IMG/VR virus record: IMGVR_UViG_3300027969_002800
Coordinates: 1-64,000 of that record
Strand: one strand, 5' to 3'
DNA from: a virus
DNA: 64,000 nucleotides
Below the pieces are notes generated by a model. It was not told the origin of the DNA. It ran no database searches and saw nothing but the letters and a program-made list of their open reading frames with translations. Shown here in pieces: positions 55,812 to 57,463 of the stretch; the first letter of the stretch is position 1; the number at the start of each line of letters is the position of its first letter. Both the position numbers and the translations under genes were made by a program.

Positions 55812-56453
55812 ATGGCAATTACTAAAGTACCTAATGGTCCTCTTATTAAACCTAAAGGTCCATTTAAAGGAAGTACATTGAAAGCTGGTGGTAAGATAAT
55901 CAAGAAAGCTCAGAATGGTAAAACTTGGCAAAGTATGTCTCAACCTGAAAAGGCAAGTAAAATAGCTGAGTTAAAGCAAAAAGGAGGATTTGAGAACGTT
56001 AAGAGATATAAAGACTCAATAAGTACAGATGCTGAAAATAGACGTAATGCAGCATTTCAAAAAAATGCAGATGTTAGAGGACTAACTGTAGAACAGTTAA
56101 GACAAGCTAATAAAAAAGACGAACGTAAGCCTGACTTAACACCGAAGGGTGATTATAAAATGAGAGAAACCAAAAGTGCTAATACAGATGGCCCAAGTTT
56201 ATTAAGTAGATTAAATCCACTTGGAGACAAAGCTAGATGTATTTATACTAATAATCGTGGTAAGGCTGAAACAAAAGCTAATGGTGGAAAGGTTAAGAAA
56301 GCTAAAGCTGGAGCAATGATTAAACGTGCTGATGGTTCATTCTCTAAACCTGGTCTTTGGGATAATATCCGTAAGAATAAAGGATCTGGAAAGAAACCTA
56401 CTAAGCAAATGTTAGTGCAAGAAAAGAAAATAAAAGCTAAATCTAAAAAATAA
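55812..56453 (+). CDS. Lys-rich protein with repeated AQxG/KxGG motifs
   Basis: LKAGG, AQNG, ANGG, AKAG; C-terminal GLWDNIR. Confidence 0.65.
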   Translation: MAITKVPNGPLIKPKGPFKGSTLKAGGKIIKKAQNGKTWQSMSQPEKASKIAELKQKGGFENVKRYKDSISTDAENRRNAAFQKNADVRGLTVEQLRQANKKDERKPDLTPKGDYKMRETKSANTDGPSLLSRLNPLGDKARCIYTNNRGKAETKANGGKVKKAKAGAMIKRADGSFSKPGLWDNIRKNKGSGKKPTKQMLVQEKKIKAKSKK

Positions 56454-57463
56454 TGGCAAATTGTAAAAATTGTAATTCTAAGCTAAAAGCATATGCTAGA
56501 ATTGATGGAACAAACACACTTGTTTCAGGAAGTCTTGTTTTAAGATTAACAAAACCTAAAGTTGGAAACTGGAAAGAAGTACAACCTATAGAATATTTTA
56601 ATAAAACTTCTCAACATTATCTTGACATAGTACAAGCTACATATCCAGATGCTAAATTAGCTAACACTGTTGCTATTAAGTTAGAACAATTTCTTTCTGA
56701 TAGAGGAATTTATGCTAACAATACAGTTTTAAATTACACTTCATGTTCAGATGATGTTAATGCTCCTGAGTTTGCTAACATATTTAATATAGGTCAAACT
56801 CCTCCAGCATTAAATGAATTCCTTGGACCATTTATGGGTGGTGGTTTAGCAGGTTATCCTCATACAGGTGCTTTAGGATTACAAGCTTGGCAAAGTCATG
56901 CTACAACAGATACTCCTATTGATGGGCCTTTATTATTAATTAATATGCCTCACATAGGTGTTACACAACAAGCTGATCTTGTTGCTAGTAATGATAATGT
57001 GGGTAGAATGTTAAGAAGAGGAAAAACTTCTGCTACAGCAGATAATACATGTGGAGCTGTAGTTACAGCTGCTCAATGGGTTATGACTAATACAGCTAGT
57101 GGGCCTACTCCAGTGAGAGGTGCAGGTGTATTTGCTAATAATGACCAATACTTCACTCTTGCCACTATATTATGGGCAAATAGATCTACATTATGTAATT
57201 CTACTAATAACTTTGTACTAGATCCTACTAAATATAGTGCTGGTGTTAAATTAGCTACAGAATATATTAGAGCAAAAAGTTTTACTGATTTAAAAAATAC
57301 TTTAATACCTGTTCTTATAGGACAAAAGAATTTATATTTCCTAACTGCTACATTTATTAATACTGACGATGAGTGGGCTCCTTGTATTGATTTTAAAGAA
57401 TTATGGCTTTGGGATTCAGGAGCTTGGACAAATCTTACAACACAATTTAATACATATTTATAA
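56453..57463 (+). CDS. LCIB/theta-type carbonic anhydrase-like protein with N-terminal module shared with 53923
   Basis: SCSDD, GGLAGYPHTG, PHIG, GRMLRRG and TCGA motifs. Confidence 0.8.
   Translation: MANCKNCNSKLKAYARIDGTNTLVSGSLVLRLTKPKVGNWKEVQPIEYFNKTSQHYLDIVQATYPDAKLANTVAIKLEQFLSDRGIYANNTVLNYTSCSDDVNAPEFANIFNIGQTPPALNEFLGPFMGGGLAGYPHTGALGLQAWQSHATTDTPIDGPLLLINMPHIGVTQQADLVASNDNVGRMLRRGKTSATADNTCGAVVTAAQWVMTNTASGPTPVRGAGVFANNDQYFTLATILWANRSTLCNSTNNFVLDPTKYSAGVKLATEYIRAKSFTDLKNTLIPVLIGQKNLYFLTATFINTDDEWAPCIDFKELWLWDSGAWTNLTTQFNTYL

Follow-up and report, generated by a model that had tools for sequence, protein, structure and literature searches.

A predicted LCIB/theta-type carbonic anhydrase joined to a putative virion-docking module in an uncultured freshwater crAss-like phage

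Proteins of the LCIB family function in the CO2-concentrating mechanisms of algae, and the literature treats the carbonic anhydrases (CAs) of the LCIB/theta type as components of that machinery. Among viral proteins, tail fibres and Hoc-like decoration proteins join a conserved N-terminal anchor to a variable distal domain, and the vaccinia virion protein D8 carries an alpha-CA-like domain that has lost its zinc ligands and is inactive. The terms LCIB, theta-CA and CGHR are used here as in the accessible part of a review (PMC7215798). The accessible sections of a 2026 survey of microbial CAs (PMC13098186) describe the theta class as one believed to occur mostly in diatoms and protozoa. According to the accessible text of a preprint (10.64898/2026.01.21.700432), viral operational taxonomic units carry alpha-, beta- and gamma-CA genes that are proposed to act on host carbon chemistry. 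Here we report an LCIB/theta-type CA-like gene from an uncultured freshwater crAss-like phage. The gene lies in a stretch of 64,000 nucleotides, hereafter the window, which forms positions 1 to 64,000 of IMG/VR record IMGVR_UViG_3300027969_002800. The full record has 116,993 bases and a CheckV completeness of 100%, and the GC content of the window is 32%. The phage is crAss-like because its capsid protein matches Crass_capsid (PF23898, E 9.2e-28, profile positions 15-489 of 496, genome 106850-108403) and its muzzle protein matches crAss_MUZ (PF25731, E 1.9e-37, at 11165-16411), which agrees with the first-pass annotation of this DNA.

The protein consists of two parts, a short N-terminal module that we call module A and a C-terminal LCIB domain (Table 1). 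In a hidden Markov model (HMM) check, the Pfam profile LCIB_C_CA (PF18599) matched the open reading frame (ORF) with E 2e-17 and 63.7 bits, against a cut-off of 25. The match spans residues 73-216 and covers the first half of the profile only (positions 7-128 of 223); in more distant relatives of the family, positions 16-220 of 223 are covered. The AlphaFold2 model, based on a 34-sequence alignment, had a predicted local distance difference test score (pLDDT) of 80.2 and a predicted template modelling score of 0.77. When the model was compared with solved structures by Foldseek, ranks 1-8 were all LCIB-family chains, namely 6kfs, PtLCIB4 and its mutants, CrLCIB and LCIC (Protein Data Bank, PDB, entries 6kfs, 5b5y, 5k5w and 5b5x), with E from 3e-13 to 6e-7 and template modelling scores by target of 0.72-0.83. 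The aligned columns are to be read against chains of 198-248 residues. Ordinary beta-CAs ranked after these chains, at E of about 5e-3 and above. A profile of the phage family searched against the PDB returned PtLCIB4 (2e-20), 6kfs (8e-20), LCIC (3e-7) and CrLCIB (2e-6). The canonical CxDxR motif of beta-CAs, with its Asp-Arg dyad, is not found in the protein, where the sequence reads C-S-D-D-V, and no Pfam beta-CA profile matched the ORF at E <= 1. Residues ~56-336 are a complete LCIB/theta-type domain (beta-CA fold, CGHR); the first-pass annotation had placed the protein in this class, and both the profile score and the solved chains at the head of the Foldseek ranking bear this out. The domain is under purifying selection, with ratios of nonsynonymous to synonymous substitution rates (dN/dS) of 0.25-0.36 against four relatives. 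In PHROGs, neither the LCIB protein nor six of seven relatives found a match, and the seventh had a weak one (E 0.024).

To describe conservation, we aligned the query and its 120 best relatives (121 rows, lowest identity 36%). Of these rows, 120 have Cys98 and Asp100 and the other has a gap there, and G131, L132, G134 and G139 occur in all of them. The numbering of PtLCIB4 in the alignment was derived from the crystallised mutant chains S47R and H88A; the Arg of the S47R chain stands opposite Ser99. Opposite Cys98, His167 and Cys200 stand Cys46, His102 and Cys126 of PtLCIB4 (counted along the chain), which Jin and colleagues reportedly identified as its zinc ligands in 2016. The same site residues, together with Arg188 and an FINxD motif, are invariant in a 14-row alignment that includes stand-alone relatives of 23-34% identity. 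Judged from these alignments, the predicted Cys-His-Cys zinc site, with Asp100 and His149, is intact. The first-pass annotation had said as much of the three ligands, and the codons it gave at 56744 (CSDD), 56951 (PHIG) and 57050 (TCGA) are correct and kept in 120-121 of the 121 rows; the GGLAGYPHTG stretch it pointed out is also present. The domain most likely interconverts CO2 and bicarbonate. Straight after CSDDV, the phage clade carries an insertion of 7-9 residues, the NIGQ loop, which is found neither in PtLCIB4 and 6kfs nor in the short stand-alone relatives.

Table 1. Features of the LCIB gene and its surroundings, in window coordinates.
Feature	Position	Strand	Remarks
LCIB/theta-type carbonic-anhydrase-like gene	56453..57463	+	336 amino acids (aa), ATG start; module A + LCIB_C_CA domain
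Module A, residues ~1-48, predicted small three-stranded beta module, then flexible hinge	56453..56596	+	HMM match, model
LCIB_C_CA (CGHR) domain, residues ~56-336	56618..57460	+	Alignment to PtLCIB4 chains; Foldseek, 264-282 columns
Cys98-Ser99-Asp100: predicted Zn ligand, Ser equivalent to PtLCIB4 S47, predicted catalytic Asp	56744..56752	+	Aligned to LCSDEV of PtLCIB4
Phage-clade (NIGQ) loop, residues 104-122	56762..56818	+	Insertion relative to PtLCIB4/6kfs; invariant N112, G114, Q115; pLDDT <50
GGLAGYPHTG motif, residues 130-139	56840..56869	+	Aligned to GGLAGFPFGG of PtLCIB4
His149, equivalent to PtLCIB4 His88	56897..56899	+	Kept in 121/121 rows; H88A chain 5b5z has Ala opposite
His167, predicted Zn ligand (PHIG)	56951..56953	+	Kept in 121/121 rows; aligned to SHVG of PtLCIB4
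Cys200, predicted Zn ligand (TCGA)	57050..57052	+	Kept in 120/121 rows, one row differs; aligned to CCGS of PtLCIB4
77-aa paralogue: module A + E-C-C + (T7-xAP)n tail	53923..54156	+	Model: three strands at pLDDT ~91, extended tail
Lys-rich 213-aa gene, upstream	55812..56453	+	Stop overlaps LCIB start (TAATG); also neighbour in L004, L009
DUF6321 gene, 92 aa, downstream	57463..57741	+	PF19846, E 2.4e-19; start overlaps LCIB stop (TAATG); neighbour in L004, L006, L009
ATAATGGCAA, 10-bp direct repeat, copy 1	56450..56459	+	Brackets the ORF
ATAATGGCAA, 10-bp direct repeat, copy 2	57460..57469	+	Joint of the gene-less relative lands here

Module A is modelled with strands at residues 12-17, 29-31 and 40-42 at a pLDDT of ~80, and residues 44-48 fall below 50. 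Residues 10-50 of the LCIB protein resemble the start of a 77-aa ORF of the same genome (53938-54060; 56% identity, E 4.7e-10), and an HMM of the module finds these two alone among the genome's 763 ORFs (E 8e-18 and 5e-16, the next at 0.34). The first-pass annotation had called the two N-termini near duplicates. The likeness is real; the wording was too strong, as these are paralogous modules and the LCIB copy is without the E-C-C and poly-Thr tail. The 77-aa family is highly conserved and large (at least 1497 clusters), and in its members the module is followed by an invariant E-C-C and then by a repeated unit of seven Thr plus xAP. The module also heads at least 463 clusters of longer proteins. 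Among 120 of these longer proteins listed, eight have a known Pfam domain on the C-terminal side: DUF1566/Lcl_C in three, an ice-binding-like domain in two, and DUF285, Fib_succ_major and Peptidase_S74 in one each. In the 11 longer proteins that were read, the module always comes first, and a Thr-rich linker follows in 10 of them.

Two relatives deserve separate mention. In one (P0317), module A and a poly-Thr linker lead directly into Peptidase_S74, the intramolecular chaperone of tail fibres, with an S-D-K-R-L-K-E-N cleavage context; this architecture hints that Thr-tailed proteins may form trimeric fibres. In the other (G011, the record of locus L008), a 347-aa gene adjoining the LCIB gene carries two tandem copies of module A, at 1900-2172. 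Searches with the module or its short paralogue gave little else. The 77-aa model had no match at Z >= 2 among 48,161 PDB representatives, the module being too small for this search to be informative; the 77-aa protein had no match in PHROGs; and module A had no tblastn match in 50,697 deposited phage records. A predicted complex in which two module-A copies of the 77-aa protein were combined with the LCIB N-terminus scored 0.01 against a mark of 0.32 and gives no verdict either way.

The modular design extends to other phages. A tree of the LCIB domain has three clades, which differ in their N-terminal module (A, B or C), and the present phage has type A. The tree is a quick one, and it omits 4 of the 121 rows because their domain was under 230 aa. 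When the rows were sorted by sequence pattern, 33 remained as "other"; visual inspection assigns 31 of them to module A, as variants or truncated copies, and two to module B. Module B has ~85 residues and module C ~70. Module B also heads fibre-like proteins rich in G/S/T, of 114-470 aa, for which PHROGs gave no match. In one locus (L018), such a module-B fibre-like protein occupies the syntenic slot after a PhoH-like gene and a 162-aa gene, and in another (L011) the LCIB protein stands there instead, with a 67-aa gene consisting of module B only just upstream of it. The type-B gene of L011 has the gene for the major head protein (phrog_138, E 9e-71) on one side and a head-tail adaptor-like gene on the other, and genes of type C are surrounded by fibre-like and tail genes. 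By analogy, this is how phage fibre and decoration proteins are built, with a conserved adaptor at the proximal end and a distal domain that can be exchanged.

The gene family is widespread. Protein clusters matching the LCIB ORF numbered 284 at E <= 1e-3, among 1876 candidates; all 120 of the 284 that were listed contain PF18599, many of them on contigs of 100-160 kb. Searched against 1.84 billion representatives, the family profile found 966 proteins at E <= 1e-3, 504 at <= 1e-10 and 49 at <= 1e-30. In IMG/VR, matches occur on 80 loci, 75 of which have the LCIB domain. Three pattern scans of IMG/VR yielded candidate stretches that were confirmed in 8 of 10, 11 of 15 and 62 of 74 cases; among the 11 confirmed, four loci (L018-L021) have module B only, with no LCIB domain, and one (L010) has the first 46 residues, at a contig end. 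In the ESM Atlas, the protein adjoins clusters named LCIB_C_CA that are 69-93% viral. The label "unusual" given to the enzyme by the first-pass annotation found no support, as freshwater phages from three or more lineages commonly carry the family.

A tblastn search of the LCIB protein against the 50,697 phage records gave no match, and BFVD held no LCIB-type match at E <= 1e-3. No cellular donor was found: 75 pattern matches in 185,579 species genomes contained a single relative, on a 1.5-kb contig of a metagenome-assembled genome with no taxonomy. When 10 representatives were looked up by cluster, one organism was named, with a diplonemid transcript of 1013 aa. Our literature searches found no paper on a phage LCIB/theta-CA; the supplementary tables of the preprint cited above, which lie outside its accessible part, could hold LCIB-type entries.

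The LCIB gene overlaps its neighbour on either side by a TAATG, so the three genes are translationally coupled. It closes a long same-strand block that runs from the capsid through the muzzle and giant proteins to the tail fibres, and the strand switches at 58489/58579. In a related phage, a 1766-base contig (run X22, 83-91% alike) joins 56440 directly to 57460. This relative therefore lacks exactly the LCIB ORF, and the gene is accessory. The direct repeat ATAATGGCAA has only its two copies in the window and is partly a common start context of the genes of this phage. Pieces nearly identical to the gene were found in contigs from RNA libraries of two runs and two studies (56569-56868 with one difference, 56448-56687 with three); such contigs may contain DNA and are not counted as proof of transcription, and the parts they leave uncovered carry no meaning. 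A scan for sigma-70 promoters and terminators over 50000-60000 stayed at chance level, with 47 promoter-like sites against 48 expected.

Several other features of this region were recorded. Exactly where the convergent gene blocks meet (58553-58575), a hairpin with a 10-bp stem and a T-run is a probable terminator. Around the LCIB gene (55442-58489) are small, very Lys-rich proteins with KKAQxG-like repeats, which may be internal or DNA-associated; the PHROG relatives of the DUF6321 gene are 99-928 aa long and carry that domain at their C-terminal end. A DUF5856/phrog_858 protein (54167-54598), labelled "starvation-inducible transcriptional regulator" in PHROGs, separates the 77-aa gene from this basic-protein cluster. 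Within 52355-54156, a 338-aa gene (phrog_4417, 52889-53905) is bordered by three small poly-Thr proteins (42, 124 and 77 aa). Near these poly-Thr genes there are also a minus-strand gene with glycosyltransferase domains (GT1+GT9, 47923-50013) and two minus-strand ORFs at 58579-59975; the poly-Thr and glycosyltransferase genes together look like phage machinery for making display proteins that are rich in Thr and possibly O-glycosylated. Further away, the window contains a 4320-aa ORF (24788-37750) and, at 1-3279, a protein with eight DUF285 repeats (E 2e-164), a domain that is also carried by module A in relatives.

We read the product of the LCIB gene as a two-part accessory protein, with module A (residues 1-48) as a putative adaptor and the LCIB CA domain (~56-336) as its cargo. 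In related phages the module appears to be a reusable N-terminal adaptor, and because it precedes poly-Thr linkers and adhesin-like domains there, it would here dock the enzyme to a phage structure, either at the virion surface or as a packaged component. It would be a late product, expressed along with the structural genes. From the modular architecture and the gene neighbourhoods, it is plausible that module A is a virion anchor. We infer catalytic activity, docking and a gain to the particle or the infected cell from the observations above, and hold with about even confidence that the protein is an active CA-type enzyme docked to a phage structure. A broader proposal is put forward more tentatively: freshwater crAss-like phages may share a display system in which a 45-residue module mounts interchangeable cargo. 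Such cargo would comprise Thr-rich, probably glycosylated whiskers, lectin-like or ice-binding-like adhesins and, in some phages, a high-turnover CA that would make the virion an extracellular or injected CO2/bicarbonate catalyst; unrelated phage lineages would have arrived at this independently, with their own adaptors B and C.

A number of observations weigh against a docked, active enzyme. Being accessory, the gene is not a required structural part. Some members of the phage clade (P0375, P0377 and P0367) are without any N-terminal module; docking is therefore not needed for the function of the domain. The copy of module A in the LCIB protein lacks the E-C-C and the poly-Thr linker that are invariant in the 77-aa family, and in two LCIB-bearing genomes (G005, 98% complete, and G006) the module matched nothing besides the LCIB protein itself. 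Module A also has no match to a solved fold or an annotated family in Pfam, PHROGs or a PDB fold search. As for catalysis, the NIGQ loop could alter substrate access, and the substrate or the regulation may differ. Jin and colleagues are said to have found in 2016 that CrLCIB and LCIC, which share the fold, showed no CA activity in vitro.

The strongest of the other explanations is a cytoplasmic auxiliary enzyme. E. coli needs CA to grow in air, and a phage CA could supply bicarbonate for carboxylations in the infected cell (carbamoyl-phosphate synthetase, the purine pathway, and the acetyl-CoA, pyruvate and phosphoenolpyruvate carboxylases), with the N-terminal module only oligomerising or regulating the protein. 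The intact catalytic site and the purifying selection fit this explanation, as do the presence or absence of the gene among close relatives, the existence of forms without a module and the viral alpha-, beta- and gamma-CA genes proposed as auxiliary in the accessible part of the preprint (10.64898/2026.01.21.700432). Nevertheless, in three lineages the gene lies in late or structural blocks, not among nucleotide-metabolism or early genes, and the same modules head adhesin-like and fibre-like proteins, which would make little sense in the cytoplasm. We consider a purely cytoplasmic role possible, though rather unlikely.

The phage domain might also act on a substrate other than CO2. COS and CS2 hydrolases share the beta-CA fold, and the invariant insertion directly after the catalytic CSDDV (N112, G114, Q115) could set the specificity for carbonyl sulfide (COS), carbon disulfide (CS2) or another small molecule. 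All residues in common with the active PtLCIB4 are nevertheless kept, including the equivalents of Ser47 and His88, and nothing positive speaks for another substrate, which makes this an improbable explanation. A shade more doubtful is a non-enzymatic binding or decoration domain, with the CA fold serving as a particle adhesin and the zinc having a structural role only. The domain is one member of a modular series that also includes the adhesin-like cargo domains, and the inactivity in vitro reported for CrLCIB and LCIC would fit. The presumed catalytic residues Asp100, His149 and Arg188, however, show the same invariance as the metal ligands, even in relatives only 23% identical, and this counts against a role in binding alone because a structural metal site would not require it.

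The last explanation turns on the host. The first-pass annotation had spoken of a phage of a heterotroph, which was an assumption: among the 50,697 phage records, the sole match to the capsid protein is a cultured cyanophage, Leptolyngbya phage Lbo-JY46 (PP438436.1; L092-L094), at 26% identity. The major capsid protein of Lbo-JY46 is itself of the Crass_capsid type (PF23898, E 3.6e-26), so such a capsid alone does not imply a Bacteroidota host; the LCIB gene was not found in this phage. In addition, the ORF at 4535-5866 of the window matches a Microcystis phage. Bacteroidota-type TAnnTTTG boxes were found 5' of 8 of the 54 genes with an upstream gap of at least 40 bases; shuffled sequences gave 2.3 +/- 1.5 (at most 9 across 500 shuffles) and the antisense strand gave 4. 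This enrichment speaks mildly for a Bacteroidota host. With a positive control included, psbA was found in none of five large LCIB-bearing contigs of type C, and two of five LCIB-bearing contigs tested are of the crAss type. The least probable explanation is a cyanobacterial host in which a cytosolic CA would let the bicarbonate pool leak as CO2, so that the CO2-concentrating mechanism collapses and carbon fixation stops during infection, an effect of cytosolic CA on cyanobacteria reportedly established by Price and Badger in 1989: the Lbo-JY46 and Microcystis phage matches favour it, and the low capsid identity, the lack of an LCIB gene in Lbo-JY46, the missing psbA and the TAnnTTTG boxes, with a GC content of 32%, oppose it.

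No transfer RNA (tRNA) was found in the 64-kb window. Elsewhere in the record, a transfer-messenger RNA at genome 94544-94875 (L085 10544-10875, minus strand) matched Rfam RF00023 with 72.8 bits against a gathering score of 47, and was not called by ARAGORN. An unusually long tRNA-Thr(AGT) of 97 nt (L085 9862-9958, minus strand), in which an intron is possible, occurs in this genome rich in poly-Thr proteins, and a tRNA-Met (L086 4569-4640, plus strand) lies directly downstream of the capsid gene.

A protein type regarded as algal forms a distinct, conserved clade that is common in large freshwater phages, and at least three phage lineages have each fused the LCIB domain to an N-terminal adaptor of their own and retain the fusion among their structural genes. 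Should the enzyme prove active and reside on the particle, this would be the first known case of a phage virion displaying or packaging a metabolic enzyme for small molecules, and the 45-residue adaptor would be a ready-made natural display tag. Should it act in the cytoplasm instead, the viral auxiliary genes with an influence on inorganic-carbon use in lakes would gain a new class of CA. The LCIB gene is easy to express and assay under either reading.

Among known systems, the closest are PtLCIB4 and PtLCIB3 of the diatom Phaeodactylum tricornutum (5b5y) and 6kfs, which have the same Pfam family, fold and Cys-x-Asp, His and Cys positions, together with the equivalents of Ser47 and His88. PtLCIB4 and 6kfs are closer to the phage family profile than CrLCIB and LCIC (2e-20 compared with 2e-6). 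Their identity to the phage protein is 20-23%, and the latter adds the invariant NIGQ loop and the N-terminal putative docking module. Moreover, PtLCIB4 is encoded by the alga, whereas the present protein is encoded by a phage and is known here from sequence and model. Chlamydomonas LCIB and LCIC (5k5w, 5b5x) and the diatom thylakoid theta-CA contain the same CGHR/LCIB domain, the two Chlamydomonas proteins being more distant in sequence (E 2e-6 for CrLCIB, 3e-7 for LCIC). These proteins serve the CO2-concentrating mechanism of algae around the pyrenoid, or work in the thylakoid lumen, and a phage has nothing comparable.

Viral proteins resemble the present one in other respects. The viral alpha-, beta- and gamma-CAs belong to CA classes other than LCIB and are without a docking module, and the beta-CAs of giant viruses gave no more than weak fold matches in BFVD (Pandoravirus at E 6e-3, Harvfovirus at E 2e-2). 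With the modular display proteins of phages there are in common a conserved N-terminal module, interchangeable C-terminal domains, in places including Peptidase_S74, and the exchange, at a syntenic position, of a fibre-like protein for the LCIB protein. The cargo differs, being a predicted small-molecule enzyme here and a receptor-binding or depolymerase domain in the display proteins, and attachment to the particle is a conjecture in the present case. Vaccinia D8 is alike in placing a domain of CA fold on a virus particle. D8, however, is of the alpha class and has lost its ligands, whereas the predicted ligands and catalytic residues of the phage protein are invariant.

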